Of a stretch of DNA of 64,000 bases, positions 22,775 to 48,894 are shown in pieces. Location: contig CBDCDC010000002.1 of NCBI GenBank assembly GCA_965215195.1, forward strand, positions 160,001 through 224,000. Reading direction: 5' to 3'. Positions within the stretch are counted from its first letter, which is position 1. The number at the start of each line of letters is the position of its first letter. A program made the position numbers and the translations under genes. Origin of the DNA: Candidatus Latescibacterota bacterium (GTDB lineage Bacteria; Latescibacterota; UBA2968; UBA8231). The notes under the pieces were generated by a model. That model did not search any database and had not been told where the DNA came from. It saw nothing but the letters and a program-made list of their open reading frames with translations.

Positions 22775-22789
22775 CGCGAGAGGAGCATT

Positions 22790-23770: not shown

Positions 23771-23782
23771 AGGAGGGAACCC

Positions 23783-25354: not shown

Positions 25355-25393
25355 CAGGCGAAGGATGCCTGACGCACCCGCTGAACCAATGAG

Positions 25394-26344
25394 GTGAATA
25401 TGCTAGACGAACTGTGCAAAATCCGCTATGCTCGCTTCCGCTTGGACATGGCCGCGGTCAGCCGGTTGAAGCTCCCGCCCTACAAGGGATCGACCTTTAG
25501 GGGGGCCTTTGGCCATACCTTCAAGCGGCTGGTTTGCGTCAAGCGGGATATGGACTGTTCTACTTGCCTGATCTGCAACCAGTGCGTGTACTACTACGTT
25601 TTTGAGACCCCGTTCAGTGGCGCGGGGGATGGCCGCGGCTATGCCTTTGCGCCGCATCCTTTTGTAGTTGAACCGCCCGAGGAGACGCGGGAAATCTACG
25701 AGCCGGGGGCCGAGCTGCGGGTCGGACTAGTTTTGGTGGGGCGGGCGCTGGACTACCTGCCCTACTTCATCTACGCGTTTGAGGAAATGGGGCAGCGCGG
25801 GTTGGGGGTCGGGCGCGGCCAAGCTGCTTTGCAGCGGGTAATCGCCCTCGGTCCCGAGCGCGGCGACGAAAGATGCGTGTATCAGGCGGATACTGGACAA
25901 CTGGAGCCGGACTATCCGGTCTGCGTTGGTCCGCCCGGCGGCGCGGCGGTTGGAACGCGGCTGCGGCTGCGGCTGCACACGCCTATCCGTCTCAAGGCCG
26001 AGGGGCGCTATATCCGCCGCCTCGACTTTGCTCCCTTGGTGCGGGCCTTGTTGCGGCGCACTTCGGACTTGGCCCGCTTCCACTGCGGGGCCGAGTTGGC
26101 CTTGGACTATCGGCAGTGGATTGAGCGGGCTGCCGAGGTGCGGCAGGTAGCGGCTGCGGTGCGCTGGCACGACTGGGAGCGGTATTCGCAGCGGCAGGAA
26201 CAGAAGATGAAGTTGGGCGGGTTGGTGGGCGAAGTGGAGTTTGCTGGCGAGTGGGAGCCATTCCTGCCGCTGTTGCGGTTGGGGGCGGATTTGCACGTGG
26301 GCAAGGGGACGGGTTTTGGGCTGGGACGCTATGAGATTTTGTGA
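25394..26344 (+). CDS. cas6: CRISPR pre-crRNA endoribonuclease Cas6
   Basis: YKGSTFRGAFG, CxxC-xxxxC cluster, PHPFVVEPP, C-terminal G-loop HVGKGTGFGLGRY. Confidence 0.93.
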   Translation: MNMLDELCKIRYARFRLDMAAVSRLKLPPYKGSTFRGAFGHTFKRLVCVKRDMDCSTCLICNQCVYYYVFETPFSGAGDGRGYAFAPHPFVVEPPEETREIYEPGAELRVGLVLVGRALDYLPYFIYAFEEMGQRGLGVGRGQAALQRVIALGPERGDERCVYQADTGQLEPDYPVCVGPPGGAAVGTRLRLRLHTPIRLKAEGRYIRRLDFAPLVRALLRRTSDLARFHCGAELALDYRQWIERAAEVRQVAAAVRWHDWERYSQRQEQKMKLGGLVGEVEFAGEWEPFLPLLRLGADLHVGKGTGFGLGRYEIL

Positions 26345-26522: not shown

Positions 26523-26617
26523 CGACGCTTCGCGCTCATCGACCCGACCGCCGTTCCCAAGCCGAGCAGGGCCGCGAGCCGTTTGTGCAAGGCGAGCACC
26601 ATTGGCTTGACCTATAG
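26523..26617 (+). pseudogene. 3' remnant of a CARF-like gene (copy 1)
   Basis: RRFALID/frameshift/RRSQAEQGREPFVQGEHHWLDL*; homologous to 43740..43829. Confidence 0.6.
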
Positions 26618-26720: not shown

Positions 26721-27617
26721 ATGACCAAGACAAAGTTGAAACTTGAAACCGTGACGCCGATGTTTCTCCATGGTGAGAATCGTACAGAACTCGAACTTCG
26801 GCCACCGCCTTTCAAAGCCCTATTTCGCTATTGGTGGCGAACCGTGCAGGATTGCGATGAAAACTCGCTTAGGGAGGCCGAGGCAAAGCAGGATTGCGAT
26901 GAAAACTCGCTTAGGGAGGCCGAGGCAAAGTTGTTTGGTAGTACAAAAGGTAAAGCACCATTCTCAATTCGTATTTCAGGAACAACGAATCTGGCAAATA
27001 CCAAATGTAAACCGTTGCCACATCGGACTGATAATCGTGGTTTTAAGAGAGATGCTTACAAAGGGGGACAATCATTTGACCTGCATCTAATTACAAATAC
27101 AAAGAACAGTTCAGATGCTTCGACTTATGAACAGATTGCGAAACTCGGTTTTTTGCTCGGCGGCGTCGGCAATCGCTCGCGGCGCGGGTTCGGGTCAATT
27201 CGTGAAAAAGGTTGGAATTTCCCAAGCGTTTGCGATCTAAAAAGGGAGATTTTGGATACACTCAATGCTGTCGCATGTGACACGCGGTTTTGGATAAACG
27301 GCCAAATCATTGAATCGACACTCACCAACTTTCCCGGTTACCCTGTCATTCGATGTATCCATTTTGGTAAACCAACAAGTAACGTTGATAGTCTATTGAA
27401 GAAAATTGGTCAGGCGACTCATGATCACAACAGTGATGCTTTGGGTTATGCAAAAGGACAAAAACGGCTGGCTTCGCCAATTCATGTTCGTATTCAGAAA
27501 GTCGGCAATGAATATGTCCCGGTTGTCACGCGACTTCATCTTGTCACGCGACTTCATCACTCAACTTATATCAGACACAGCAAGCAGAGGGACTTTATTT
27601 GTGCCATCATCACGTAG
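26721..27617 (+). CDS. cmr1: Type III-B RAMP Cmr1
   Basis: LETVTPMFLHG, ELRPPPFKALFRYWWR, LGGVGNRSRRGFG, RLASP; two internal tandem duplications. Confidence 0.92.
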   Translation: MTKTKLKLETVTPMFLHGENRTELELRPPPFKALFRYWWRTVQDCDENSLREAEAKQDCDENSLREAEAKLFGSTKGKAPFSIRISGTTNLANTKCKPLPHRTDNRGFKRDAYKGGQSFDLHLITNTKNSSDASTYEQIAKLGFLLGGVGNRSRRGFGSIREKGWNFPSVCDLKREILDTLNAVACDTRFWINGQIIESTLTNFPGYPVIRCIHFGKPTSNVDSLLKKIGQATHDHNSDALGYAKGQKRLASPIHVRIQKVGNEYVPVVTRLHLVTRLHHSTYIRHSKQRDFICAIIT

Positions 27618-32929: not shown

Positions 32930-33340
32930 ATGATGCCACAAAATCAGACAACACTTAAGGGAATTGAACAGGGGCGGGCCAAGTATGCTTTCTGCGTTGT
33001 CAATGACGTCAGCCAGATCGAATCTGATGACTTAAAAAAGAAGTATAAAACTGCTGCGAAGAAGATTCCTGTTCTAATAAAAACCAACGGGCTTGGGCAA
33101 TCCCTAGCATTCATTAAGAAAAGGAATGATGGTTACGACAAGCTGTACGAGCAGATTGGGAACTGGATCCAAACTGAGGATGCCAAGCAATTGGTTCCGT
33201 CGGGCGAACTTGTCGAAGAGGTTATCCAACTTCAATCGCCTGTCTATCGGCAAGTCACTATCGAAACGCTCGCGCTACTCAATTGGATTCGCCGATTTGT
33301 GGATGGACTCATGAAAGATGTGGAGGCAGACAATGACTAA
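32930..33340 (+). CDS. cmr5: Type III-B small subunit Cmr5
   Basis: [35 protein letters not shown]. Confidence 0.93.
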
Positions 33341-34400
33341 CTACCATCCATCCGATACGGAGCAACTGATTCGCTCATGTAACCACCGGATTGACAACTT
33401 TGCTCTACGCTACCGACATTTTTTGCGGATTGATGCCCCAAGAGGCAATGACCTGAAATACAAAATCAACTTTCAGTGTTCCGGTCAGAAGCTTGAGAAA
33501 TCGTCTCAAGAATGTGTCAAGCATCTGAGAGAACGGCAACGCCAGCAACTCCAGCAGTTTGCTATGCGCGGCATTGAACTTTACTGCGTTGATGCAACGG
33601 TTGATTGGCGGCTGATTGTTGGTCTCGGTAGCGAGCATATTCAGGAGACAAACATGACGCTCCATCACATCTACGGCATTCCGTACATTCCCGGAAGTGC
33701 TGTGAAGGGCGTGTTGCGCCACTGGTGGTTGCATGAGGATTTTGACAATGACGAAAACAAAGCCCTGAAAAATAAAAGTTTTCTCGCTCTCTTTGGCAGC
33801 CAAAAACAGCGCGGGAAAGTGCAATTCATTGACGCCTATCCTGATGAAGTCCGTTTTGCAACGGATATCATGAATCCGCACTATCCCGACTATTACAGTG
33901 GCAGCAAACCACCAACAGATTCTCAAAATCCAGTGCCTATCAATTTTTTGACCGTCGAGCAGACCACCTTTCGATTCGCTTTCTTGGCAAAGGATCAAGA
34001 ACTTCTCGATAAACTCAAGGCGCGATTTGAAGATGCCTTAGAAATGAAAGGCATTGGAGCGAAAACAGCGGTTGGTTATGGGTATTTCCGCGATTTTAAA
34101 GACCAGACTGCCAACATAACAGACCGTGAAGCCGATATGCCCGCTCGGCCTTTGAATGCGACCAAAAGCACTATATCAATCACAGCAGACCGCGAAGCCC
34201 GTGAAGTCGGAACTGTAAAATGGTTCAACGCTGCCAGAGGATTCGGTTTTATTGAGCAAGAAGGTGGCGAAGACGTTTTTGTCCATTATTCCGCGATTCA
34301 AGCCAAGGGCTATAAATCTTTGGCAGAGGGTGACTGTGTTGAATTTGACATTACCGAGGGGCCTAAGGGACTCCAAGCTTCAAATGTCGTGAAGCGATAA
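33333..34400 (+). CDS. cmr6: Cmr6 fused to a C-terminal cold-shock domain
   Basis: [27 protein letters not shown] and [11 protein letters not shown], then [34 protein letters not shown] (RNP1/RNP2). Confidence 0.95.
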
Positions 34401-34587: not shown

Positions 34588-36471
34588 ATGCAAGAAGTAT
34601 TGCGCCAAGCGCGACAGCACATTGACGCGAGTGAATTCGACCGGGCCGAGAGCCTGTGTGCCGATGTCTTGGTGGCCGATCCGGTCTGTGTGCCGGCACA
34701 CCAACTGATGGCGCGGGTGTGGCTGGGACGGAAGCAACCCGACAAAGTGCGCGACCGCCTCGGGTATCGCGACCAGTTGCCCCACGACGAACACTATGTC
34801 GAGTGGGGCCTGATCGCCGAGGAGATGGAAGACTTGGAGACCGCCGGCCAGCTCTATGAAGGGCTGCTGCAGCGGGAGCCGCAAAACGCCGTGGCCCTGT
34901 ACCGGCTGGGCTTGCTGTGCCTCGAACGCGGCGAGCGGGACCGGGCCGTGGGCCTGTTGCAGCGCACCTTGCGGGCGAGTCCAGAGTACGCTCCGGCCGC
35001 GTTTGAGCTGGCCCAGTGCTATGCCGAAGACGAGTTGTGGGGGCTGGCGGCCGATGCGTACGAGCGGGGCTTGGAGCGCGACCCGTCCCATGAGGAGGCC
35101 CGCACCGCCCTGCAAGTGGTGGAGGCGCGGATGCGGGAACTGGCCGAGTTGCCCAGCAGCGAGGTGCCGGCCGGGGAGGGCCCCACGCGGCGGATGCGGG
35201 TATTGTTCGCTGGGCGGGAAAATGTCCACGCCCGGCAGTGGATAGACGAAAATGGCCGGGTTGGGTACAGTCCGGTCCATGAGCCGCTCGCCGAGCATCT
35301 GTTAAGCCTGCATTTGCAAGGGACCGCGACCTTGGGCGTGTACCCGGTGCGGGCCGACCAGACGGTGCTGTTTGGGGCCCTCGATATTGATGTGCGCAAA
35401 AACGCCCTCACCGCGGGGCAGCCGCTCGCCGACCGACTGCGGGAAACCGTGCAGGCCGATGCCCGGCGGCTCGCCCGGCAGTTCGATGCGTTGCACCTGC
35501 CGGTCTATGTGGAGGAGAGCGGGTACAAGGGCGTACATCTGTGGATCTTTCTTGCGGAGCCGGTGCCGGCTGCGGAGGTGAAGCGCTTTTTGGAGGCGGT
35601 CGTCCAGCGGGTCGGCCCCCCTGCGCCCGAGCTCCAGTGGGAGGTATTCCCCAAGCAAGAGCAGGTCGCCGAGGACCAGTTGGGCAATCTGATCAAGTTG
35701 CCGTTGGGCATTCATCTCAAGACTGGGCGGCGGTGTTTGTTCACGGACTTGGAAGGGCAGGAGTACAGCGATCAGGAAGGGTTCCTCCAGCGCATTCAGC
35801 AGGTTGAGCGCAAGGATTTCGAGCGGGCCGTGTCTCGCTTGGTGGCCCGGCCCGAGCAAGGCGGCGCGGCCGGGTCGGCTCAAGCCCTGCGCGAGGCTTT
35901 TCCCGAATACGAGGCCCTGTTCAAGGGCTGCCCGGTCTTGGTCGCCCTTATGGAAAAGGCCGTGGTCACCCATCACCTCACCCACGACGAACGCTTGGTC
36001 CTCAAGTGCGTTTTGGCGCACTTAGGCGACAGGGGGCGTCGGCTGATCCACAGTATTGTCGGGCACTGCCTCGATTACTCTGAGGCGATCACCCAGCAGC
36101 AAATTGAGCGCACCCCGCCCTATCCGGTCAGTTGTCCCAAAATTCGTCAGCGCCTCCCGGAGGTCACTTCAACGGTCAACTGCGCGTGTGTGTTCGAGTT
36201 GCCCGAAGGGGGGTATCCTTCGCCGCTGTTGCATCTCGAGCCAGACTTTACCAAGGGTCGGTCTCACAATGCCGATCGGCACGGGCCGATGGTGGACAAG
36301 TACGTGAATTTGCGGCGGGATTATCAGCGGCTGAGCCGCGAGTTGGCCCACCTCGAAGACGATCTGCGCTACGCGCTTGACTCGAGCGGCCAAGACGAGT
36401 TGCGGGCCGGCGGGTGGATTCTGCGCCGCGATGGGGAGGGTCGCTTAAAGGTGGAGATCGACTTGGGGTGA
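34588..36471 (+). CDS. CRISPR-associated primase-polymerase (CAPP): TPR + AEP primase-polymerase + Cys-rich C-terminal domain
   Basis: TPR repeats; AEP motifs LDID (DxD), ESGYKGVHLW (SxH), EVFPKQ and GNLIKLPLG; PriL-like Cys pattern GCPV..HCLDY..SCPKI..NCAC; stop overlaps the cas1 start. Confidence 0.92.
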   Translation: MQEVLRQARQHIDASEFDRAESLCADVLVADPVCVPAHQLMARVWLGRKQPDKVRDRLGYRDQLPHDEHYVEWGLIAEEMEDLETAGQLYEGLLQREPQNAVALYRLGLLCLERGERDRAVGLLQRTLRASPEYAPAAFELAQCYAEDELWGLAADAYERGLERDPSHEEARTALQVVEARMRELAELPSSEVPAGEGPTRRMRVLFAGRENVHARQWIDENGRVGYSPVHEPLAEHLLSLHLQGTATLGVYPVRADQTVLFGALDIDVRKNALTAGQPLADRLRETVQADARRLARQFDALHLPVYVEESGYKGVHLWIFLAEPVPAAEVKRFLEAVVQRVGPPAPELQWEVFPKQEQVAEDQLGNLIKLPLGIHLKTGRRCLFTDLEGQEYSDQEGFLQRIQQVERKDFERAVSRLVARPEQGGAAGSAQALREAFPEYEALFKGCPVLVALMEKAVVTHHLTHDERLVLKCVLAHLGDRGRRLIHSIVGHCLDYSEAITQQQIERTPPYPVSCPKIRQRLPEVTSTVNCACVFELPEGGYPSPLLHLEPDFTKGRSHNADRHGPMVDKYVNLRRDYQRLSRELAHLEDDLRYALDSSGQDELRAGGWILRRDGEGRLKVEIDLG

Positions 36472-37466
36472 TTCTCTATGTGACGGATCAGGGCGCGGGG
36501 GTCTATTGCCGCGGCGAGCGTTTGCAGGTGCGGCGGCGCAAGGAAGTATTGGCCGAGGTGCATCTGTACGATCTGGAACAGGTGGTGCTCATGGGCCGGA
36601 TCGCGCTTTCGGCCGCGGCCATGGGCACGTTGCTCGAGCGGGGCGTGGATACAGTCTTGCTGAGCGTGCATGGTCGATACCGGGGCCGGCTGGTCGGACC
36701 CGAACGGCGCAATGTGCTGCTGCGGCAACAGCAGTTCAAGCGCTACGAAGACGAGCCGTTTCGGCTGGGGGTGGGGCGGGCCGTGGTTGAGGGCAAGCTA
36801 CGCAATATGCGGACCCTGCTCATGCGCTTGGCCCGGCGGCGCAGGGTGGATGTGGGGGCGGTGGCCCACTTGCTGCGTCGGTCGATTCAGCAGGTCGGGC
36901 AGGCGACTAACGCGGAGTCGCTACGCGGTTTGGAGGGGGCCGGTAGCGCGGCTTATTTTGGGGTGCTTGGGGACTTTTTTCCCGAGGAACTCCCGTTCAA
37001 GGGACGCAACCGACGGCCGCCCAAGGATCCGGCCAATGCGCTGCTCAGCTTTGGGTATGCTCTGTTAGGCAACAGTGTGGAGGGCGCGGTCTATTTGGCC
37101 GGGCTCGATCCGTACTTGGGCTTTCTGCATGTGGTGGACTATGGGCGTCCTTCGCTCTCGCTGGATTTGATGGAGGAATTTCGGCCGGTGTTGGTTGATG
37201 CGCTGGTCTTGGATTTGGTCAACCACCATCGGGTGCAGAGCGAGGATTTTGAAGCGCGGGACGGAGGGGTATTTTTGCAGGGGGCGGGCCGCAAGCGGCT
37301 GATTGAGGCGTACCAACGCCGTCTCGAAGACCGGGTGGCCTACCCAGTAGGGGCCGAGCGAGTGGAACGGATTTCTTATCGGCGTTGCCTCGAATATCAG
37401 GTGCGCCGATTGGCCCGGGTGATCTTGGGCGAGGAAGACCACTATCGGGCCTTTCTGGTGCGTTGA
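36468..37466 (+). CDS. cas1: CRISPR-associated endonuclease Cas1 (no RT or Cas4 fusion)
   Basis: LYVTDQG, RGLEG..AAYF, RNRRPPKDPANALLSFGY, GLDPYLGFLH, LDLMEEFRP. Confidence 0.97.
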   Translation: MILYVTDQGAGVYCRGERLQVRRRKEVLAEVHLYDLEQVVLMGRIALSAAAMGTLLERGVDTVLLSVHGRYRGRLVGPERRNVLLRQQQFKRYEDEPFRLGVGRAVVEGKLRNMRTLLMRLARRRRVDVGAVAHLLRRSIQQVGQATNAESLRGLEGAGSAAYFGVLGDFFPEELPFKGRNRRPPKDPANALLSFGYALLGNSVEGAVYLAGLDPYLGFLHVVDYGRPSLSLDLMEEFRPVLVDALVLDLVNHHRVQSEDFEARDGGVFLQGAGRKRLIEAYQRRLEDRVAYPVGAERVERISYRRCLEYQVRRLARVILGEEDHYRAFLVR

Positions 37467-37467
37467 G

Positions 37468-37743
37468 ATGTTTGTGACGGTTTGCTTTGATATCAGCTCG
37501 GACCGAACCCGTCGGCAGGCGACTCGGGTGCTGGAGGCTTATGGGACGCGGGTGCAGAAGAGTGTGTTCGAATGTCGCATTGGTGAGCGGCAGTTTGTCG
37601 AGTTGCGGCAACGCATGAGTCAGATCAATCTGGGGGCAGGTGATCTGGTGCGCTACTATACGCTGTGCCGGGCTTGTCAGGCCAAAGTCGAATTTACCGG
37701 CGGTTTGCCGCCGCAGGAGGAAAAAGGGCATATCGTCGTTTGA
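37468..37743 (+). CDS. cas2: CRISPR-associated endonuclease Cas2
   Basis: VCFDISSDR, YGTRVQKSVFEC, DLVRYY. Confidence 0.97.
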   Translation: MFVTVCFDISSDRTRRQATRVLEAYGTRVQKSVFECRIGERQFVELRQRMSQINLGAGDLVRYYTLCRACQAKVEFTGGLPPQEEKGHIVV

Positions 37744-38004
37744 AAGGGGGAATTTGCGACTCAGTTTAAGAAAGGGTTGTCAAAATAGCACAATGGGGTT
37801 ATATTTTTTTGTGCCGTAAGGAATTGGGTGCGTTACTTGATCCGATTCTGGGTCGCAAATGGGTAACGGCCTGTCCTAGAATTAGTTGGCTCAGATGCTC
37901 TTGCCACAGTCAGAATGGTTTTGATAGGCGGGTGCCTGTCAAAATGGCCTGAGTCGCATAAGGGGGCTAGACGGACTGTGGCCCAATAAGTTAGAAAGGA
38001 GGCA
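37744..38004 (+). promoter_or_regulatory. CRISPR leader
   Basis: AT-richer non-coding 261 bp between cas2 and the first repeat. Confidence 0.8.
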
Positions 38005-40354
38005 ATCAGAACACTGGACCCGATTTGTAGGGGATTGAAACGAGCCGATATCCGGTGTGGCGGCAAATTCAATACATAAATCAGAACACTGGACCCGATT
38101 TGTAGGGGATTGAAACATGCCGTTTTCGACCTCGCCGCCGGTCCACGTGTACGTATCAGAACACTGGACCCGATTTGTAGGGGATTGAAACACACCCAAG
38201 AGGTGTCCACCCGCACCAGGACCCGAGAGATCAGAACACTGGACCCGATTTGTAGGGGATTGAAACTTCTTGTTCCGCATCCTGCCGCGCAGCTTCCTGG
38301 ATATCAGAACACTGGACCCGATTTGTAGGGGATTGAAACTTTGCCGCGACCCGCTCCATGCACTCGTTAAACTCTTATCAGAACACTGGACCCGATTTGT
38401 AGGGGATTGAAACGTAATTAAACGACACGAGGTTGTTGTGAAACACACACATCAGAACACTGGACCCGATTTGTAGGGGATTGAAACCGAGAAAGTCATC
38501 TTCGGGTGGCGAGTACAGTGGCGAAATCAGAACACTGGACCCGATTTGTAGGGGATTGAAACATCTGTAGGCTGACGTCTTCGATCGTGATGGTATCGGG
38601 GTATCAGAACACTGGACCCGATTTGTAGGGGATTGAAACACGGCACCGACCGCTTCCTCGACCTCCGTAACCACCTATCAGAACACTGGACCCGATTTGT
38701 AGGGGATTGAAACTAATGGTCTCGGTCTCAGTCTCGGCCGAAGTCTCGGTATCAGAACACTGGACCCGATTTGTAGGGGATTGAAACTTCTTGCCCACAC
38801 GAATGTGGGGGTTTTGTGCCTCCGATCAGAACACTGGACCCGATTTGTAGGGGATTGAAACCACTTGGGCGGCCCCATGTCCGCAGCCGAGTTGCTCATA
38901 TCAGAACACTGGACCCGATTTGTAGGGGATTGAAACGAAAAGAAGAGGGCGAACGCCTGGGTCTTGTACCCTCCCAATCAGAACACTGGACCCGATTTGT
39001 AGGGGATTGAAACCACGACTTGTCGAGGGGGAAGTCTTCGGGGAGTCTCTCATCAGAACACTGGACCCGATTTGTAGGGGATTGAAACTGGATGGAGTTC
39101 TGCTGGAGAGCGTACTGGAAACCGAAATCAGAACACTGGACCCGATTTGTAGGGGATTGAAACGGGTCAGCGCCCGCCCGATAGGGTTTCTCGAAGAATC
39201 AGAACACTGGACCCGATTTGTAGGGGATTGAAACTGCCCGAGAACTCGCCGGGACCAATCAGAGACGCACATCAGAACACTGGACCCGATTTGTAGGGGA
39301 TTGAAACTTTTTTTCATACGGGGGTTCCTTCGCGTTGGGCGCGGATCAGAACACTGGACCCGATTTGTAGGGGATTGAAACTCAACCCACCTAGCCCGAA
39401 TCCCCCGAATCCCAAAAAAATCAGAACACTGGACCCGATTTGTAGGGGATTGAAACTTTAGAGAGTTGGGTTAGGTGGTTTGCGGCTTCCTCTTATCAGA
39501 ACACTGGACCCGATTTGTAGGGGATTGAAACTTGATGTCATTAACAGTGATCTGGAACATTTTGGCCTATCAGAACACTGGACCCGATTTGTAGGGGATT
39601 GAAACCCGATCGCCGCCCACCTCGTCCGGCGGATTTACCATCTCATCAGAACACTGGACCCGATTTGTAGGGGATTGAAACTTATGTGGGAATGGGGGTG
39701 GAAAAAAAACGACGAGATCAGAACACTGGACCCGATTTGTAGGGGATTGAAACAATGACTGCCTGACGCGACGGAGCGTCTTGATCAGGTATCAGAACAC
39801 TGGACCCGATTTGTAGGGGATTGAAACTTCATCACGATGCTTAAGTGCTCGGGGGCAATTTTCCCATCAGAACACTGGACCCGATTTGTAGGGGATTGAA
39901 ACTCGTCGAATTCGGGACTGAGCCCATTCTCGGTTTGAACGATCAGAACACTGGACCCGATTTGTAGGGGATTGAAACGCTCCTGCAGGGCAATCAGCGC
40001 CCTCTTGGTTCTTGCCATCAGAACACTGGACCCGATTTGTAGGGGATTGAAACACCTGCACGGTGGTCCCGAGTGCGAGCTCGTTTACAAGGATCAGAAC
40101 ACTGGACCCGATTTGTAGGGGATTGAAACACCTCCGAGACCACTTCGTCGGACTCGAGGTTGATATATCAGAACACTGGACCCGATTTGTAGGGGATTGA
40201 AACGCTTAGTGGGGCGACCTAGAAGAGCCGTTCCTCGAGCGATCAGAACACTGGACCCGATTTGTAGGGGATTGAAACCGATCTGGAACATTTGAGTCTC
40301 CTCAATTGTGGCCGCAGATCAGAACACTGGACCCGATTTGTAGGGGATTGAAAC
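38005..40354 (+). CRISPR. CRISPR array: 32 copies of the 37-bp repeat ATCAGAACACTGGACCCGATTTGTAGGGGATTGAAAC and 31 spacers of about 34-40 bp
   Basis: Repeats counted by hand from 38005 to 40318; no variants seen. The 3' ATTGAAAC handle and the leader position give + orientation. Confidence 0.99.
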
Positions 40355-40380
40355 CCCGGAAGGCAGAAAGGAGGAGGCAA

Positions 40381-40482
40381 ATGAAAAAGGTTGTCTGCGC
40401 TGGACCGCCTAGGTCCGGCAGAAGCTATTTGTGCGAGGGATTGAAGCAGGCTATTATAAAAATTACCAAAGACGACCCGTAA
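40381..40482 (+). pseudogene. Truncated N-terminus of a P-loop protein resembling the ATPase-Csx3/Crn3 fusion
   Basis: Strong SD AAGGAGGAGG, then MKKVVCAGPPRSGRSYLCEGLKQAIIKITKDDP*; Walker A-like GPPRSG(R)S. Confidence 0.6.
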
Positions 40483-40529
40483 AAGATTGCTGGCGTTGTG
40501 ACTCGCCAAATACAATCGAGGTTTGCGTA

Positions 40530-42230
40530 GTGCCAATCGCTGAAACAGTATTAAACGGCATCCAAGACAGAGGCCGACGAGCACTGCCCATTGAGAGAAT
40601 TTATCGACACCTCTACAACCCCGACCTATTCCTACGTGCTTATGGGCGCATCTACCGAAAAACAGGGGCGACCACACAAGGCATCACAGAAGAAACCACA
40701 GATGGCATGTCAATGAAGAAAATCAATACCCTCCTAGAGAAATTCCGCTGTGAGCGTTACCAATGGACTCCGGTAAGGCGGATATATATTCCCAAGAAAA
40801 ACGGCGGGCGGCGTCCGCTCGGCATCCCCGTTTGGTCCGATAAACTGGTACAAGAAGTCATGCGATCCATACTGGAAGCCTACTATGAACCCCAGTTTAG
40901 CGATCTGTCCCACGGCTTCCGAGCTAACCGAGGCTGTCACTCTGCACTAAGAGAAATTGCAAAATGGAAAGACATAGACTGGTTTATCGAAGGCGACATC
41001 AAAGAATGTTTTGACAGCATAGACCACGATCTACTACTGTCCATATTGAAAGAGAAAGTCCACGATGATCGATTCATTGTCTTACTCGGCCAGCTTCTCA
41101 AGGTCGGATATGTAGAGTATGGGAGCTACAAATCCACCCTGATCGGCACCCCACAAGGAGGGCCTGTAAGCCCAATCTTTGCCAATGTGTATCTCGACAA
41201 GCTGGATAGGTTTGTCGAAAACACACTCATGCCTCGCTATACAAAAGGTAATTGGAAAACCGCGAGGAACTTGCAAAGAATAATGCGGCAAAGGCCGCTA
41301 TCTAATGCCAAAAATCATATCTTTAGACGACTGCGCTATATCCGATACGCCGACGACTTTCTGATTGGCTTTACCGGGCTAGAGGCAGAAGTAAAAGAAG
41401 TCAAGAGGTGCCTCAAAGGATTTCTCCAAGAAAAGCTGAAATTGGAACTATCAGAGGACAAAACCTTGCTCACGTACGCCCGCACCGAGAAAGCACAATT
41501 CCTCGGATACGAAATCAAAAGAATGACTGAAAATACCAAACACAAAAAAGGCCGAAAGCCGATCAACAACGCGCTGAGTCTCAGCGTTCCAATAAGATTC
41601 ATAAAAGAGCGATGTGAACTCTATATAAAATACGGGCGAATAATGCCTCGTGCCGAACTGATCAACGACAGCGACGCCGACATCACGAGTTTCTTTCAGA
41701 GCCGATATGCCGGTTATGTGCAATACTACATGCTTGCCCACAATGTCCACGCCTTAAACGAAGTGCGATGGGTTATGGAGAAGTCCTTGCTCAAGACGCT
41801 TGCCAAAAAGCATAAAACGAGCGTCAATCAGTTTGAAAAACAGTACAAGACGACCATCCAAACACCCCACGGTCCGCAAAAGTGCTTGGAGATGCAGGTG
41901 GTAAATCGAGAAGGAGAACCACAGATCGCACGCTTTGGCGGCATTCCTCTCAGACGACGACAAGGTAAGACCATTGAGGATCAAGCCCAAAATGATGCTC
42001 CCACGAGCAAAGGGACAGAACTCATCCAACGCCTGCTGGCAAACCTATGCGAATGCTGCGGCTCAGCGGGCAGAGTCGAAGTTCACCACATCCGAAAACT
42101 CGCCGACATCAAAAAGGGGAGGTCGCCAAAACCCAAATGGACGCAAGAAATGATCGCGCACCAGCGAAAAACCTTGATTGTGTGCAAAAAGTGTCATCGC
42201 GCCATCCATTCGGACCAAATCAGCCACTGA
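40530..42230 (+). CDS. Group II intron-type reverse transcriptase/maturase with HNH endonuclease; no flanking intron RNA recognisable
   Basis: RPLGIP..DKLVQE, SHGFR, EGDIKECFDSIDH, GTPQGG, YADD and FLGY; maturase X region; CECCG..EVHH..CKKCHRAIH; likely GTG start 40530 after GAGG. Confidence 0.95.
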   Translation: MPIAETVLNGIQDRGRRALPIERIYRHLYNPDLFLRAYGRIYRKTGATTQGITEETTDGMSMKKINTLLEKFRCERYQWTPVRRIYIPKKNGGRRPLGIPVWSDKLVQEVMRSILEAYYEPQFSDLSHGFRANRGCHSALREIAKWKDIDWFIEGDIKECFDSIDHDLLLSILKEKVHDDRFIVLLGQLLKVGYVEYGSYKSTLIGTPQGGPVSPIFANVYLDKLDRFVENTLMPRYTKGNWKTARNLQRIMRQRPLSNAKNHIFRRLRYIRYADDFLIGFTGLEAEVKEVKRCLKGFLQEKLKLELSEDKTLLTYARTEKAQFLGYEIKRMTENTKHKKGRKPINNALSLSVPIRFIKERCELYIKYGRIMPRAELINDSDADITSFFQSRYAGYVQYYMLAHNVHALNEVRWVMEKSLLKTLAKKHKTSVNQFEKQYKTTIQTPHGPQKCLEMQVVNREGEPQIARFGGIPLRRRQGKTIEDQAQNDAPTSKGTELIQRLLANLCECCGSAGRVEVHHIRKLADIKKGRSPKPKWTQEMIAHQRKTLIVCKKCHRAIHSDQISH

Positions 42231-42282
42231 TGTTAGGCTCTGGCGGTTTGGCCTCTTTATCAAAATCTCAAAGGAGCAACTC

Positions 42283-43665
42283 ATGGAAACAGCCACACAC
42301 CAGCCAGCGAATGAGCCGCACACGATCTTGTTATGCACCGTCGGCGGTGCTCATCAGCCGATTCTTGAGGCAATTGACTCAACGTCACCTAGCTATGTCT
42401 GCTTCTTCTGCACGGACAAAGATCCCGTGACCCAAAAGCCAGGTACTATCGGTCATGTGACCGGTAGTGGCTATGTCATCAAGGCTGACTACAACGAAAC
42501 TAAGCCTACGTTGCCGAATATCCCCACCCAAGCGCGTCTTAATAACGGCGAGTTTGAAACGCAGATAGTCCCGGCGGACGACCTTGATGGGGCTTATTTA
42601 GTCATGCGTAACGCCATCATCAACTTGGCTGCGCGATTTTCGGGCCCCCGATTTATCGCCGACTATACGGGGGGCACCAAGACGATGACGGCGGCACTTG
42701 TATGCGCTGCCTTACAGGGGAGGGATGATGTCGAGCTTCAACTTGTTACGGGTACCCGTTCCACTCCCACCATCGTGGACGATGGAACCGAACAGGCGAT
42801 GACAGCGAGCGTGGCTCGTCTGCGCCTTGAACGGGCGATGGCACCCTATCTTGGGGCTTGGTCGCGGTATGCGTATTACGAAGCCGCGGAAGGGCTGAGA
42901 AGCATCCGAATTGTCAGCAACGACCGCGATCGGCAGGGGTTCCTCTTTGTAAGCTCACTAAGCCGAGCCCTAGCTCTTTGGGATAACTTCAATCATGCCG
43001 ACGCATTAAAGTTGATGCGGCACTATGGAGGGCAAGTCGCTCAATGCTATCCGAAAATGTTGCCTTGGTTGGACTTACTCGCTAAGGAGAAGGGGAACGA
43101 ACCCGCACTGCTGTTTGACCTCTGGTTAAATGCCCAGCGGTGTGCAGCCCAAGGCCGGTTCGACGATGCGATTGCGCGATGGTACCGCCTGCTGGAGTGG
43201 ACAGCTCAATGGCAACTGCAAACGAAGCTCAAGGCCAATACCGCGGATTTTGCATCTGATTTGCTGCCATCGGGTGTTGACGCGGCTCCAAGTAGCGATA
43301 AAAAAATCAAGCTCGGACTTTGGCAGGCATGGCAAGTCGTGAAGCACCATGAACGCCTGTCGGGACCCGCTCAAGAATTCATCAAGAACCACGGGGGGAA
43401 GGTCTTCGATTTACTTAAGGTACGCAACAATTCGATACTGGCTCACGGTTTTCGTCCAGTGAGTGACTCGGACTGGCAGCAGGTGTATTCGTGGACGCAG
43501 GACAAATTCCTGCCTGCCCGTTCTGCGTCAGTTAGCCGCCAAAGCAAACATAAAAAAAGAGCCGGAGCAACTCCCGACCACACCTCCAGAATTCTTCACC
43601 TGAACCGCGTCCGACAGTTACTGGCTCGCTTGATCCGTTTGTCTCAGTACACGACAGCAACCTAA
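42283..43665 (+). CDS. CARF-HEPN effector (TIGR02710-like, Csm6/Csx1-related); last ~50 codons are out of frame
   Basis: CTVGGAHQP, ADYTGGTKTMTAAL, GRFDDAIARWYRLLE, HEPN RNNSILAHGF; 4-bp duplication at 43509-43516. Confidence 0.9.
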   Translation: METATHQPANEPHTILLCTVGGAHQPILEAIDSTSPSYVCFFCTDKDPVTQKPGTIGHVTGSGYVIKADYNETKPTLPNIPTQARLNNGEFETQIVPADDLDGAYLVMRNAIINLAARFSGPRFIADYTGGTKTMTAALVCAALQGRDDVELQLVTGTRSTPTIVDDGTEQAMTASVARLRLERAMAPYLGAWSRYAYYEAAEGLRSIRIVSNDRDRQGFLFVSSLSRALALWDNFNHADALKLMRHYGGQVAQCYPKMLPWLDLLAKEKGNEPALLFDLWLNAQRCAAQGRFDDAIARWYRLLEWTAQWQLQTKLKANTADFASDLLPSGVDAAPSSDKKIKLGLWQAWQVVKHHERLSGPAQEFIKNHGGKVFDLLKVRNNSILAHGFRPVSDSDWQQVYSWTQDKFLPARSASVSRQSKHKKRAGATPDHTSRILHLNRVRQLLARLIRLSQYTTAT

Positions 43666-43829
43666 GTTGTGGCACGACGCTGATGGGCTTGGTTGTGCAA
43701 CGGCTGGTTGAAGAAGCCCGAAAGCTGGATCGCCCGGTGCGACGTTTTGCTCTCATTGATCGCCGTTCCCAAGACGAGCAGGACAGCGATCCGTTTGTGC
43801 AGGGCGATTGCCACTGGCTTGACAACTGA
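43659..43829 (+). pseudogene. 3' remnant of a CARF-like gene (copy 2)
   Basis: NLSCGTTLMGLVVQRLVEEARKLDRPVRRFALIDRRSQDEQDSDPFVQGDCHWLDN*; NLSCGTT resembles the CARF N-x-T-G-G-T motif. Confidence 0.6.
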
Positions 43830-44340
43830 ATGAGACTGAGGCTATTGATGCCTGCCACTATTCTTTGCTCATCTGCCAGACCCTCCAACGCCTCACGAGC
43901 AACCCCCAGTACAAGCTCAAGCGATACCACATCACGACCCAGTAACACCTGCATTTTTTGCACTTTTGCACCAGTTCGGCCCCTCGCCCCGCTCCTCGCC
44001 CGGCAGTGCCTCTTGCGTAAGTAACGCATTTACAATGCCTTAACGGCCCCTCAACCAAGTCTGGCATTGGATTTGCTATCTATACGTAGGTCGATGGTCC
44101 CTGCCGTGCAGCCGGGAGAGTTTCACGGCCTAATAGGGCAAGCAATTTGGGCACTTGATGCTTTGCAGCTCCCAATTGAAACGGTGAGAGTGCAAATTAT
44201 GCACTTTGAGCACCCCAAGGCCGGTGCTTCTAACTCGCGCAATTTGAGTGCCTTGCAGGCCGTCGGCTCGAAATTGTTGCAACGGAGGGCAAAAATTTGC
44301 GCCTGCTAACCCCATTTCCAAGGAGGTTTCGCGATCCAAG

Positions 44341-44885
44341 AGGTGAAGTGTTGACTCATTGCTAGGGGATTGAAGCTGAGGATGAGGATGGTACGTTGGT
44401 TGTTTTTCGCTACGCGGCGGTAAATTAGCCCAATCAACCTAATAACCGGGAGAACAAGATGGAAGATTATTCGGCGGTAGTCTGCAAAGCCGTAGTGGAT
44501 CATATTTCAATACGCTACGGATCAGCCGGATCAGCCAGATGTTCGAGAAGGTGGGTAGAAACCGAACCCGGCTTGATGCACAGGATTTCTAGAAAATGGC
44601 TGGCGGACCACAGGCGTTGGGTGGAGTTTCGCCACGCGCCCAAGCGGCAACAGGCTGCCGAGGATTCCGAGCGTCGCCGGCGGGCTGTATATGCTCGCTA
44701 TGCCTTGCTCGAGGAATGGGAATTTGTCGATAGTAAACGGCCGGGTAAGGCCCGGTCTTGGTTTGCTCCTATTTGAAGAGTTGCCCCGATTGCTAGGGGA
44801 TTGAAACTGTGGGAGCATGATGGGAGCACGCGGAGCATGAGCCGAGTTGCTTAGCGCGTTGCCCCGTTTTCCAGAGGATCGAAAC
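44341..44885 (+). CRISPR. Degenerate mini-array of a second repeat type: three repeats at 44341-44376, 44771-44807 and 44849-44885
   Basis: Best copy ATTTGAAGAGTTGCCCCGATTGCTAGGGGATTGAAAC (29/37 identical to the main repeat); flanking copies diverged; gaps of 394 bp and 41 bp. Confidence 0.8.
44459..44776 (+). CDS. Hypothetical 105-aa protein lying between two CRISPR-like repeats
   Basis: GGGAGA RBS before ATG; stop codon lies inside the repeat at 44771; no recognisable family. Confidence 0.4.
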   Translation: MEDYSAVVCKAVVDHISIRYGSAGSARCSRRWVETEPGLMHRISRKWLADHRRWVEFRHAPKRQQAAEDSERRRRAVYARYALLEEWEFVDSKRPGKARSWFAPI

Positions 44886-44917
44886 CACCCCAGCGCCACA
44901 GCCCAGCGATTCCGCCC

Positions 44918-45637
44918 ATGCGCCTCTGCGACTTTCCAATCCTGACCTTCGACACCTATGGAACCCTGATCGACTGGGAGACGGGAATCTGGGATGCGCT
45001 GCAACCGCTCTGCTCGCGTCTGGCCGACCCGCCGACCCGCGAGGCGGCCCTCGCAGCATTCGCACGGGCGGAATCGGCCGGCCAAGCGGCCACCCCGGAC
45101 CTGCTCTATGCCGACCTCTTGGCAGCCACCCACCGCACACTGGCCCGGACTTGGGGCCGCGAACCCGAGGATGCCGAGAGCATCCGCTTCGGCCAGTCGG
45201 TCGGGGACTGGCCGGCCTTTGCCGACGCGGCCGAATCGCTCGCCTACCTGCAACGCCACCACCGGCTGATCACCCTCACCAATTGCGACCGCGCCAGCTA
45301 CCAGGGCAGTGCCGCCCGCCTCGGCGATCCTTGGGACGCGATTCTCACGGCCGAGGAGATCGGCTCGTACAAACCGTCGCTGGCCAACTTTGAATTCCTG
45401 CTCGCCCGGGTGGCGGCCGACTTTGGCCATGCTCCCGGGAGCATCCTGCACGTCGCCCAGAGCCTCTTTCACGACCACGTGCCGGCCAAGGCGCTCGGAC
45501 TGACGACGGCATGGATTGACCGGCGTGCGGGGCGCAAAGGCGGCGCGACAGTACCGCCGCAGAAGGCAGTGGAACCCGACTTCTGTTTCAAAAGCATGGC
45601 GGAGCTGGTCGCCCAGCATCGCGCCGAACGGGCCTGA
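44918..45637 (+). CDS. HAD-family hydrolase (haloacid dehalogenase type II-like)
   Basis: LTFDTYGTLIDWE, LTNCD, SYKPS, LHVAQSLFHDHVPA. Confidence 0.92.
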   Translation: MRLCDFPILTFDTYGTLIDWETGIWDALQPLCSRLADPPTREAALAAFARAESAGQAATPDLLYADLLAATHRTLARTWGREPEDAESIRFGQSVGDWPAFADAAESLAYLQRHHRLITLTNCDRASYQGSAARLGDPWDAILTAEEIGSYKPSLANFEFLLARVAADFGHAPGSILHVAQSLFHDHVPAKALGLTTAWIDRRAGRKGGATVPPQKAVEPDFCFKSMAELVAQHRAERA

Positions 45638-45735
45638 ATCCGCCCCGGCGGCGCGTGGACGAAAGCGAAATGCGCCGCTAATTTCTAGAGGACGGCTCCC
45701 CCTTGGTGCTAATGCTAACGGAAGGAGAAAGACGA

Positions 45736-45918
45736 ATGGAGTATCGACACATAATCACCATTGAACCCGGAAAGCGCAGTGGTAAGCCGTGCATTCGCGG
45801 CATGAGGATTACCGGCTATGATGTGCTTGACTATCTCGCCTCGGATATGTCCGTTGAAGAGATTTTGCGCGACTTTCCCGAACTTACGGACGCATCACGC
45901 TGCAATTTTGAGATTTGA
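45736..45918 (+). pseudogene. DUF433-family antitoxin, 3'-truncated, no toxin
   Basis: ITIEPGKRSGKPCIRGMRIT..DVLDYLAS..EEILRDFPELT, then loss of the usual final helix. Confidence 0.8.
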
Positions 45919-45984
45919 GCAAAACGATTTTGCGCTGGAATAAATCGCTTCGTTATACGGGAAAGGATTCAGGATCGAGACCCC

Positions 45985-46746
45985 ATGAGCACACCCCTCC
46001 ACGATCGCATCGCCTTAGTAACGGGCGCGGCTGGCGGCCTTGGCCAAGCAATATGCCGCGCCTTGGCCGCCGAAGGCGCAACAGTCGCCCTGCACTACCG
46101 CACTCAGCAGGATGCTGCCCACGCACTCGCGGCCGAGCTGGGCGGAGCCGCCTTTGAGGCCGATATAACCGAGGCGGCGGCCGCGCAGTCGCTGGTTGAG
46201 GGCGTGGCCGGGGAACTGGGCGGGTTGGACATTTTGGTCAACAACGCCGGCATCACCATCGGCGGGCAGTTCGTGGCCGATATGGCGCTGGCGGACTGGC
46301 ACCGAGTGCTCGATGTCAACCTCAACAGCGTCCTCTATATGTGTAAGGCCGCCCTGCCCCTGATGCGTGAGCGGGGCAGTGGCGCGGTCGTCAATATCGC
46401 CTCGAATGTGGTCAACACCCTGCCCGGCGGGGCCGCAGCGTACGCGACCACCAAGGCCGGGGTCGTGGCCTTGACCAAAGTGCTGTCCAAAGAGGAAGCC
46501 GCGCACGGCATCCGCGTCAATGTGGTGTCGCCGGGGATCATCGACGCCGGGATGGGGCGCGGGGCGCTGGCGCGGCGAGCACCGGCAGTGCGGGCGCAGT
46601 TTCTCAGCAGCATTCCCATGGGCCGGGCCGGCGGGCCGGAAGAGGTGGCCGCGGCCGTGGTCTTTTTGGTCTCGCCGGCGGCCAGCTACGTGACCGGACA
46701 ACACCTAAGCGTCAATGGCGGCGACCGCACCGAGTCCTACCAGTAG
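45985..46746 (+). CDS. SDR family (FabG-like) oxidoreductase
   Basis: VTGAAGGLG, LVNNAG, YATTK, VNVVSPG. Confidence 0.95.
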   Translation: MSTPLHDRIALVTGAAGGLGQAICRALAAEGATVALHYRTQQDAAHALAAELGGAAFEADITEAAAAQSLVEGVAGELGGLDILVNNAGITIGGQFVADMALADWHRVLDVNLNSVLYMCKAALPLMRERGSGAVVNIASNVVNTLPGGAAAYATTKAGVVALTKVLSKEEAAHGIRVNVVSPGIIDAGMGRGALARRAPAVRAQFLSSIPMGRAGGPEEVAAAVVFLVSPAASYVTGQHLSVNGGDRTESYQ

Positions 46747-46881
46747 AAGGCACTGCGCCCCAATTTGTGATAGACACCTATACTAACAGTAACTATATTG
46801 GATTACTAACATTTATGAACCTATCGCTCCCGCTGCAATGTCGTCGGGAAGCGCGTCTAATCTCGAAGCGATCTTACTGAA

Positions 46882-48894
46882 ATGAAGTACTTATTCACCG
46901 GCGGCGGCACGGGCGGCCACGTGTACCCGGCCTTGGCCATGGCCAACGAAGTTCGGCAGACGCGGGCAGACGCCGAATTCCTCTATGTGGGCCATCGAGA
47001 CAAGTTAGAGTCTTGGGTGGTGCCCGAGCAGGGGTATCCCATCCGCTTTGTCCGCGCCCGCCCCTTCCCCCGGACGCGCTCTCCGGTGGCCCTGTTGCGG
47101 TTCGCCGGTGCGCTCGCGGTCGGGGTGGTCCAAGGGGTGTGCATCCTCTTGCGCTACCGGCCCCAAGTCATCGTCAGCACGGGCGGCTTTGTCAGTGCGC
47201 CGATCCTCTTCGCGCATGGGGCGTTGGCAAAGGTCGGCCTTTCTCGCGCCCGCGTCTTTATCTACGAGCCGAATGCTTACCCCGGGCTTTTGAACCAAAT
47301 TAGCGGGCGGCTGGCCCAGCGAATCGGGGTGGCGTTTGAGCAGGCGGGCCGCTGGTTCGACATGAAGCGGGTGGCGGTGGTCGGCTATCCGGTGCGCCGC
47401 TCTTTTTTGCACCTCGACCGGTCGGCCGCACGGGAAAAGTTGGGCCTTGCCCAAGGCCGCAAGGTCGTGCTCGCCTTTGGCGGGTCGGGGGGGGCCAAGG
47501 CCATCAACGAGGCCGTGCTCCAAGCCTTGCCCCTCTGGCAAGCGGCCGGGCTGGTGGTCATCCACGTCACCGGTCGCTACAAGGGGCCGGATTACGACGC
47601 CGTGGCAGAGACCGAGGCGGCCTTGGCGGCGATGGGGATGGAGGGAGAATGCGACTGGTATCGACGCCTCGATTACGCGGATCAGATCGCCGATCTGGTC
47701 GCAGCGGCCGATCTGGTCATTTGCCGCTCCGGGGCCGGTACGCTCACCGAGATGGCGGTCAGCGGGACGCCCACCCTGATTGTGCCACTGCCGACCTCGG
47801 CCGAAGACCACCAAGCCCTCAACGCCCGCGAGATGGAGCGGATAGGGGCTGCTCAGGTGCTCTATCAAGAGGCGTTTTGGGACAACGCCGGCATCCACAG
47901 TCGGGTAGATGGAGAAAAAATGGCGCGGCAGGTGCTCGCATTGTGCGCCGACGAGGCGCGCTTGCAGGCCATGGGCAAGGCCGCCAAGACCATGCCCAAG
48001 GCCAACAGCCTCGAACTCATCGCGGCCGAGCTGGACCGCCTCATCGCCGGGCAGCGGCCACCGGCGCTGCGCTTGGAATTGCCCCCGGCCAAAAGCGGCT
48101 TGCCGACCGCTCCCAACGCCTTGCTGCGCTGGGTGCAGGCGCGGGTCGCAGAGGTGGGGGGCGTGGAGGCGATGGAGCGCGGCGAACTGGCCTACCTGCG
48201 CTATCAAGCCGATCGCCTGCTCGCGTCCGAGGGTTGGTGCGAAATCCCGCTGGGGCAGCGCAATGTGGGCGTCAAGCTCGTGGCGGTCTTAAACTACCAA
48301 GAGCGGCTGCCCTTGCTGCTGCACATCCTCACCGACCGCACCCCGGCCGGCCGGCCGCGCCGCTTTTGCGGCGGCGACTTCCGCCACGGGGGTATTATAC
48401 GCCGCAATGCAATTGAATACGGCCTGCGCGGCTTGGGGGCGAGCGACGCGCAAACCCGGGCCGCGCTGCTCAACGCGCTGGCCGCGGACCCCTACTTCGA
48501 GGTGCGGGCGTGGGCCGCGCAGGCCCTCGGGGAGTTGTTTGCAGTTGATGGCGAGATCGAAGGCGTGCTCGGCGCGGCCCTCGACGATAGCGCACCAGAA
48601 GTGGTCGTCCAAGCCCTCGGTGCCCTCGGGAAAATAAGCCACAATTCCGACCTGCTAGCGCGGCTGCGTTGCTTCTACCGGCACCCGAACTGGCAGATTC
48701 GCGAGCAGGTCGTGCTGGTGCTGATCGAATTTTTGCAGCGCGGCGTCTTGGAGCCGGCGCAATTGGAGCGCGATCTCGACCAAGTCCTGATCTCGATGCC
48801 TTATTTCAAGCCGGAGTTTCCCCTCGGCACACACCTGCGCGAATTGGCCGATCTCGTGCACACCGAGCGGTCCCTAGTGGCTTCGCAGCGATGA
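46882..48894 (+). CDS. murG: MurG glycosyltransferase with a ~290-aa C-terminal extension containing HEAT-like repeats
   Basis: TGGGTGGHVYPA, TGGFVSAP, EPNAYPGLLN, FGGSGGA, CRSGAGT and HQALNA; tail DPYFEVRAWAAQALG, DSAPEVVVQALGALG, HPNWQIREQ. Confidence 0.88.
   Translation: MKYLFTGGGTGGHVYPALAMANEVRQTRADAEFLYVGHRDKLESWVVPEQGYPIRFVRARPFPRTRSPVALLRFAGALAVGVVQGVCILLRYRPQVIVSTGGFVSAPILFAHGALAKVGLSRARVFIYEPNAYPGLLNQISGRLAQRIGVAFEQAGRWFDMKRVAVVGYPVRRSFLHLDRSAAREKLGLAQGRKVVLAFGGSGGAKAINEAVLQALPLWQAAGLVVIHVTGRYKGPDYDAVAETEAALAAMGMEGECDWYRRLDYADQIADLVAAADLVICRSGAGTLTEMAVSGTPTLIVPLPTSAEDHQALNAREMERIGAAQVLYQEAFWDNAGIHSRVDGEKMARQVLALCADEARLQAMGKAAKTMPKANSLELIAAELDRLIAGQRPPALRLELPPAKSGLPTAPNALLRWVQARVAEVGGVEAMERGELAYLRYQADRLLASEGWCEIPLGQRNVGVKLVAVLNYQERLPLLLHILTDRTPAGRPRRFCGGDFRHGGIIRRNAIEYGLRGLGASDAQTRAALLNALAADPYFEVRAWAAQALGELFAVDGEIEGVLGAALDDSAPEVVVQALGALGKISHNSDLLARLRCFYRHPNWQIREQVVLVLIEFLQRGVLEPAQLERDLDQVLISMPYFKPEFPLGTHLRELADLVHTERSLVASQR

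Follow-up and report, generated by a model that had tools for sequence, protein, structure and literature searches.

Three CRISPR repeats (R1 to R3) near the right-hand edge of a type III CRISPR-Cas island are most probably what is left, in decay, of the trailer end of an older CRISPR array, one that formerly occupied the site between cas6 and a HAD-family hydrolase gene. The repeats lie in a stretch of 64,000 nucleotides, here called the window; G000 denotes the genome of the window, and G001, G002, G004-G006, G011, G012, G018, G020 and G022 denote relatives in the same genus. The feature is of an ordinary kind, a scar, and neither a second working array nor a toxin-antitoxin pair guarding the locus should be annotated here. 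Its parts are as follows:

44340..44376, + strand: R1, a degenerate repeat with a 1-nt deletion, ending in ATTGAAGC, its stem lost
44377..44770, strand not assigned: insert, 54% G+C vs 60% for the genome
44771..44807, + strand: R2, an intact repeat of the older array type, 34/37 to the array repeat of G018 and 29/37 to the main-array repeat of the window
44808..44848, + strand: 41-nt spacer between R2 and R3, with no identifiable target
44849..44885, + strand: R3, a degenerate terminal repeat, positional orthologue of the last repeat of the G018 array, its stem lost

The three repeats and the island of the window

The cluster had been noticed in a preliminary description, and on re-reading the window sequence all of its elements were present: three repeats with gaps of 394 bp (44377-44770) and 41 bp (44808-44848), a clean R2 of 37 nt with eight mismatches to the main repeat and the same ATTGAAAC end, and an R3 matching R2 at 26 of 37 positions without gaps (27 once end gaps are free). 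R1 is indeed a degenerate copy, but its best placement begins one base earlier than the 44341 first given, and its repeat-derived part is confined to 44344-44376, the first bases belonging to a duplicated fragment upstream. Since a 12-mer from the repeat end, GGGGATTGAAAC, gave 39 matches in the window at up to two mismatches vs 5.76 expected, the motif is present beyond chance; 32 of these matches are exact array copies and one is the degenerate terminal repeat of the main array, at 40436, while R1, R2 and R3 account for three others. A repeat search also paired 44358-44381 with 44789-44812 at 92%, and Rfam returned a sub-threshold CRISPR-DR10 match for R2 (22.5 bits vs a gathering score of 39, E 0.22). 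Two further candidates were rejected. The ATTGAAAC at 44175-44182 is not a fourth repeat; it lies inside the duplicated fragment, and the parent copy of that fragment reads ATTGAAAT. Nor is R1 with its downstream sequence a duplicate of R2 with its spacer, the alignment score being reached by 429 of 1000 shuffles.

The repeats decay independently. R1 aligns to R2 with 30 matches and a 1-nt deletion, the differences amounting to four positions and that one deletion, and to the G018 repeat with 31 matches; G at position 22 is common to R1 and R2 and absent from the G018 repeat. R1 forms no hairpin (MFE -3 kcal/mol, z +1.0), and among the three repeats R2 alone retains the CCCC/GGGG stem (-8 kcal/mol), along with the 8-nt handle. 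Because only R2 keeps stem and tag, it could still be a Cas6 substrate. The traits of an active array were not found at the cluster. Its repeats are far from identical (30/37 with a 1-nt gap for R1 and R2, 26-27/37 for R2 and R3), in contrast to the 32 identical copies of the main array and the 66 of the G018 array; its gaps of 394 and 41 bp form no regular repeat-spacer period; and there is neither a leader by the first repeat nor cas1-cas2 nearby, these genes (36414-37743) lying beside the main array.

The island itself contains the left-hand anchor of the site and an intact array:

25394..26344, + strand: cas6, the left-hand conserved anchor (Pfam CRISPR_Cas6, E 8.8e-20)
38004..40447, + strand: main array, 33 repeat copies and a degenerate terminal repeat, from repeat search

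A Pfam profile search of 20 ORFs identified the island as type III-B CRISPR-Cas on matches to Cmr2, Cmr3, Cmr5 and RAMP families, and no type I cas8, cas7 or cas5 was found among the ORFs scanned. Reading from cas6, the gene content is cmr1, cas10/cmr2, cmr3, a gene for a CARF protein, cmr4, cmr5, a cmr6-like RAMP gene with a cold-shock domain, a gene for a TPR and primase-polymerase protein, cas1, cas2, the 33-repeat array, a reverse transcriptase (RT) gene and csm6, with the R1-R3 cluster ~700 bp 3' of csm6. The regular copies of the main array occupy 38004-40354, and its degenerate terminal repeat (40411-40447) ends, like R1, in ATTGAAGC. G+C content is 45-48% in cmr2 and the RT gene and 63-68% in cas6, cas1 and the flanks. 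Elsewhere the genome carries a second cas6 and two further arrays that have the same 8-nt end and other repeats, neither of them closer to R2 than 29/37.

The product of 33318-34400 is a Cmr6-like RAMP with a C-terminal cold-shock domain (Pfam CSD, E 2.7e-27; RAMPs, E 1.7e-23), and such a fusion is unusual among subunits of type III-B. The gene at 34588-36471, which separates the cmr genes from cas1-cas2, encodes TPR and AEP-TOTE primase domains (E 4.9e-44) with a weak Mu Gam-like tail, and its product may be a CRISPR-associated primase-polymerase. The RT (40411-42230) is of the group II intron type, with maturase and HNH domains, and since it starts at or inside the degenerate terminal repeat of the main array there is no room for intron domains I-III. 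No group II intron RNA was matched by Rfam near the RT at E ≤1 in 37000-46000, or at gathering score in the window, and the GTG start listed for the RT, at 40431, is probably too early. In the cmr1 ORF, a perfect 42-nt tandem duplication (26846-26929) forms an in-frame repeat of 14 codons, and tandem units of 15 nt and 42-45 nt within coding-looking sequence at 16862-17101 and 15471-15677 probably encode a repeat protein.

The array end in a relative, and the spacer

G018 has an ordinary long array at this very site. The right-hand anchor of the comparison is the following:

44886..45637, + strand: trailer junction (CACCCCAGCG...) and the gene of a HAD-family hydrolase, the right-hand conserved anchor

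Read from rows of at least 60 nt, out of 151, the alignment with G018 extends on the left over window 20005-26344, through cas6, at 88-93%, and on the right over 44769-47000, from R2 onward, at 87-92%; the intervening 18 kb has no G018 alignment save a 204-nt fragment and cross-matches between repeats. Across the whole of window 44769-45634 the identity to G018 is 87%, and the Pfam Hydrolase match of the HAD gene is below cut-off. The cas6 genes of the two genomes are 89% identical in nucleotides and 87% in amino acids (276/316), and that of G018 accompanies an array of the R2 type. In G018 the interior consists of an IS, a III-A csm module, a CARF-like gene, a III-D-like module, another CARF gene and cas1, followed by the array of 66 identical repeats, which R2 matches at 34 of 37 positions. 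R1, R2 and R3 are homologous to this bona fide array family, and the array end is orthologous in position, both flanks being syntenic. The G018 array ends ...GAAAC followed by CACTCCAGCGC, and the window after R3 reads ...GAAAC followed by CACCCCAGCGCC; because the array end and the flanks align, R3 takes the place of the last G018 repeat and R2 that of the second-last. The spacers between the last two repeats are not recognisably alike in the two genomes. These results bear on the suggestion that the cluster is debris of an array that arrived with the cmr module: debris of an array it appears to be, but of an older resident type that is complete in G018, and not of one brought in with cmr.

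A near-perfect solitary repeat (21/22) was also seen in G018 (C1:5145770-5145791, L017/L018), ending 3 nt before the ATG of an SDR gene, so that the HAD gene of G018 is bracketed by repeats. At the corresponding position, G000 (window 45960-45984) and six other relatives carry a GAGATC[AG]A..CC-like remnant.

The state of R2 makes a working one-spacer mini-array conceivable, in which read-through from the duplicated upstream region of a sigma-factor gene (see below) would be cut at R2 by Cas6 and the resulting crRNA carried by Cmr. The stem and handle of R2 are intact, and the G018 enzyme that works with this repeat type has its orthologue in the resident Cas6. The poor state of R3 need not matter, since crRNAs of type III systems undergo trimming of their 3' ends. 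However, the cluster has no leader, no sigma-70-like sites were predicted in 43600-45000, and a terminator-like hairpin lies just 5' of R2. The spacer likewise speaks against such a role. It had no target in the genome, partial matches included, no match among plasmids and no exact match among viral contigs (an exact-match search, which misses imperfect targets), and one chance-level match among phages (E 0.2); it is also internally repetitive. We therefore consider a working mini-array unlikely. The repetition takes the form of three GGAGCA-containing units spaced ~11 nt apart, which is unusual for a spacer.

Fragments upstream of R1 and the 394-bp insert

Four further features lie upstream of R1 or within and beside the insert:

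43669..43872, + strand: fragment from the 3' end of a CARF-like gene, for which the window holds no intact ORF
43866..44348, + strand: damaged copy of part of the other contig of the genome, C1, from pairwise alignment (79% mean column identity)
44459..44776, + strand: ORF105, an orphan open frame with an ATG start and 105 aa, probably not a gene
44739..44767, + strand: terminator-like hairpin and T-rich tail, within the last 12 codons of ORF105

The sequence leading up to R1 is a mosaic of fragments. The first, 43669-43872, is 84% identical to the last 160 nt and the 33 nt downstream of a G018 gene encoding a protein of 586 aa, whose CARF matches are all sub-threshold. A second copy of this CARF-like 3' end occurs at 26523-26611, with 85% likeness to the first over 66 nt. 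Genomes from another family of the same class also carry the stretch, at 81-92% identity, and it may be a place where CRISPR modules recurrently join. The second fragment, 43866-44348, copies a C1 region (512495-513111) that runs from the last codons of a gene for a sigma-54-dependent response regulator, across an intergenic region, into the opening codons of a sigma-70-family gene; Pfam identified the parent genes. The copy has suffered three deletions, one of which removed the start codon of the sigma-70-family gene, and its homology to C1 ends at GATCCAAGA, where R1 begins. The intergenic part of the parent region is conserved at 66-73% in many genomes of the genus, and its palindromic TGCA-rich blocks are retained in the copy. 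Since R1 is preceded by this damaged C1 copy, it has no leader; judged by its origin upstream of a sigma-factor gene, the fragment could supply a promoter. R1 and the 394-bp piece continue this series of unrelated fragments set end to end, a pattern such as illegitimate recombination leaves.

The origin of the insert itself was sought in several directions. A second copy was not found in the genome by blastn or tblastx. Comparison with 50,697 phage and 72,556 plasmid records gave no match, and the flanking sequence is chromosomal and keeps its synteny throughout the genus, so that by these comparisons the insert does not lie on phage, plasmid or other mobile DNA. A string of decayed repeat-spacer units was rejected because no hidden repeats were found in the insert, the best matches being reached by 13 to 222 of 300 shuffles, and an array leader was rejected because the insert is unlike the leaders of A1, A2 and G018. 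A marginal 40-nt match lies far upstream of the A3 array; its score was reached by 9 of 2000 shuffles, in four comparisons.

Integration of the 394-bp piece into a repeat by Cas1-Cas2, in the manner of a casposase and with duplication of the repeat, would make it a giant spacer. Its foreign-looking composition, between repeats that share G at position 22, is compatible with such an event. But R1 and R2 differ at four positions and by a deletion, the 5' end of R1 has been replaced by an unrelated fragment, and no source was found for the insert in the genome, phages or plasmids; moreover, in a similar layout in G005 (see below) the flanking repeats are of different subtypes, against duplication of a single repeat there. 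Such an integration is, in our judgement, highly improbable.

The insert had been described as holding a ribosome-binding site and a 105-aa ORF with its TGA within the repeat, and both are present: GGGAG lies 6 nt before the ATG, and the TGA (44774-44776) is inside R2. ORF105 is nevertheless most likely a chance open frame in debris. It is an orphan: it was found in none of the 30 other genomes of the genus, and a homologue search, proposed earlier as a check, returned one 98%-identical copy among 5.8 billion clusters and nothing beyond it; the two differences known in ORF105 both change an amino acid. HMMER on 1.84 billion representatives gave that copy again as its one real match, a second (P0003) being a tandem-repeat artefact, and no related locus was found in the metagenome and genome contigs scanned. 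The frame matched no Pfam family, and its top Atlas score (0.79) is below noise level. Its composition also differs from that of real genes, with G+C by codon position of.58/.53/.54 vs.64/.45/.73 in the long ORFs of the genome, a codon score (-0.09) that places it at about the 1st percentile among 105-codon pieces of real genes, and no frame that stands out. ESM recognition was 2113, below the 2300 mark, and an AF2 single-sequence model was of low confidence (pLDDT 56, pTM 0.36); overall, neither kind of prediction was informative. An ORF of at least 105 aa arose in 11.7% of 5000 shuffles of the insert, and an ATG-started ORF of at least 100 aa with a GGAG-type motif 5-13 nt upstream in 0.28% of 5000, the latter by a criterion set after ORF105 had been seen. 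The frame is Arg-rich, with 6 AGA/AGG among 17 Arg codons. It crosses the terminator-like hairpin (44739-44757; -19.3 kcal/mol, z -2.5), the sole such site in 43600-45000, and closes only by the TGA that R2 supplies.

Two functional readings of ORF105 had been put forward. In one, cuts at R1 and R2 would free an ORF105 message as a Cas6-excisable mRNA cassette, tying its expression or stability to Cas6. The ATG with its well-spaced GGGAG, rare among shuffles, the repeats on both sides of the frame and the similar layout in G005 are in keeping with a cassette. Yet R1 has no stem, bears a deletion and has a changed handle; a cut 8 nt before the end of R2 would keep the stop codon, but the hairpin-terminator precedes it; the frame has neither coding signature nor homologues, and its AF2 model is of low confidence; and the G000 and G005 ORFs are unrelated. 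A cassette of this kind is thus very unlikely. In the other reading, the locus is guarded as in CreTA or CrePA: R2-spacer-R3 would provide an antitoxin RNA of the creA kind, while ORF105, or else an RNA from the insert, would be a toxin held down by the effector, so that the cell comes to depend on the CRISPR effector. Two degenerate repeats around a spacer-like piece, with a small Arg-rich ORF adjoining at the edge of a cas locus, do recall that arrangement. However, the spacer seed (nt 1-5 and 7-11, up to one mismatch) had no match in 43600-45000 save the spacer itself, the longest word shared with that region was 7 nt, local alignments were no better than those of shuffles (255 and 257 of 300 reached the score), and the genome held no match. 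Lacking seed or partial complementarity to nearby DNA or to the genome, the spacer gives the CreTA-like proposal no foothold; the effector here is type III-B vs the DNA-binding type I of described cases, and ORF105 was not found in the 30 genomes of the genus. We regard such a guard as exceedingly improbable. Of the findings that the preliminary description had itself named as telling against a function, two are now in hand: ORF105 has no homologues beyond the 98%-identical copy, and a relative, G018, has an ordinary long array at the site.

Repeat scars in the genus, probable turnover of the island and known systems

The site upstream of HAD was examined in six members of the genus that have no array there (G022, G011, G012, G020, G001 and G006). 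Four of them (G022, G011, G012 and G020) have a GATTGA..|CACTC stub directly after the stop codon of an aldo-keto reductase gene, in the form GATTGAAAC, GATTGAAAT or GATTGAGAT; the stub is absent upstream of HAD in G001 and G006. In G011 the reductase and HAD genes are 3 unaligned bases apart, and because they are nearly adjacent there, the island of G000 can be bounded at ~23771-44876. Elsewhere, a single repeat is fused to a 25-230-nt 5' stub of cas6 in G002, G004 and G011, G011 also has a two-repeat array, and in G020 a leader homologous to that of the main array of the window is followed by one repeat. On a contig of run X6, a repeat end is joined directly to the start of the HAD gene, with just 23 letters on the repeat side. 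Arrays of related repeats occur in 15 of the 30 other genomes (up to one mismatch over 22 nt), by a 22-nt pattern that also captures the main-array repeat type. Since such single and paired repeats are obvious scars, decay and collapse of these loci are common in the genus. A DUF433 gene (45703-45918, E 1.4e-18) lies between the HAD and SDR genes of the window; its 3' end seems to have been replaced, relatives and a contig of run X6 diverging from ~45888, and in G001 and G020 it adjoins repeat scars.

A layout resembling that of the window was found in G005 (L021, C1:2187195-2187702), where two repeats stand 486 nt apart directly after an AAA-ATPase/PDDEXK gene. The 446-bp insert between them is absent from other genomes of the genus and holds a 105-aa ORF that is unrelated to ORF105, has no coding signature and is even flatter in composition; the flanking repeats are of different subtypes. 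With the 394-bp insert of G000, the 446-bp insert of G005 and the HAD gene of G018, it could be argued that repeats at the locus repeatedly bracket gene-sized unrelated DNA, reflecting repeat-mediated capture or Cas6-coupled cassettes and not random debris, with capture by Cas1 integration or by recombination at repeats as a route that could be followed. We consider this distinctly unlikely.

The arrangement in G000 is not an artefact. Single contigs from runs of three studies (X1, X5 and X7) bridge it whole, with 0, 13 and 20 differences, respectively, and the assembly is correct on this evidence; since the strains are ~99% identical, this stability has little power on selection.

Taken together, the scars and base composition, and not a rooted tree, suggest the following order of events. 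An older array would once have occupied the site between cas6 and the HAD gene. The interior of the island would then have been replaced or rearranged, acquiring the III-B cmr module, cas1-cas2, the 33-repeat array of a related but different repeat, the RT gene and csm6, and stranding R2-spacer-R3 at the right edge. Like the two gene fragments directly upstream, R1 and the 394-bp piece would be debris of illegitimate recombination. Having no leader, the relic presumably could not grow, and it probably lacks a function. Cutting of R2 by Cas6 is possible; at most, read-through transcription might allow the resident Cas6 to cut R2 and release one stray crRNA. Counted against the relic reading are the rarity of an RBS-led ORF in shuffles, the better preservation of R2 relative to R1 and R3, the possible promoter upstream, the stability among close strains and the similar layout of G005.

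As a marker, the relic indicates a rebuilding, within the genus, of the type III island that the aldo-keto reductase and HAD genes enclose, while cas6 and the array trailer junction kept their places. Most of the solitary repeats and mini-arrays in these genomes are scars of deletions, which calls for caution in sequence-only screens that seek CreTA-like 'ectopic repeats' or regulatory mini-arrays.

Among known systems, the cluster can be compared with CreTA, the CRISPR-regulated toxin-antitoxin RNA pairs (PMC8501985; PMC9458426). Their original description is a 2021 Science paper. The text of PMC8501985 describes creA genes with two degenerate repeats and a spacer-like piece whose seed must pair with the promoter of the neighbouring toxin, and it contains no occurrence of 'type III'. 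Repeat-like sequences flanking a spacer-like sequence, a creA trait, are seen here as R2-41 nt-R3; as in CreTA, the spacer-like piece stands close to cas genes between degenerate, ectopic repeats, of which there are one or two, and has a small element as neighbour. In contrast to that system, the seed of the spacer here is not complementary to a promoter nearby, the effector is of type III-B and not type I, relatives do not conserve the element, and the toxin is only putative. CrePA, a CRISPR-repressed protein toxin of type I-F Acinetobacter described in bioRxiv 10.1101/2024.01.05.574328, is similar in having a small protein-coding frame beside a creA-like mini-array, but ORF105 has no homologues, coding signature or complementarity, and the CRISPR type is another.

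The closer likeness is to ordinary processes of array decay. CRISPR arrays that survive as orphans or remnants, and degenerate repeats at trailer ends, are a known kind, and the present cluster shares with them a bona fide repeat family, independent decay of the repeats, the lack of a leader and of adjacent cas1-cas2, and a position at the old end of an array that is full at the same site in a relative. It differs in that one inter-repeat gap consists of 394 bp of unrelated DNA, not a spacer, and in that the island also holds, next to the relic, an intact and newer array whose repeat is of a sister type. Type III loci are likewise known for modular turnover, in which effector modules are exchanged beside conserved adaptation or processing genes. 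The III-B cmr module of G000, standing where G018 has III-A and III-D-like modules between the same cas6 and right flank, conforms to this pattern; the difference is that the exchange here left a datable scar, the last two repeats of the old array.
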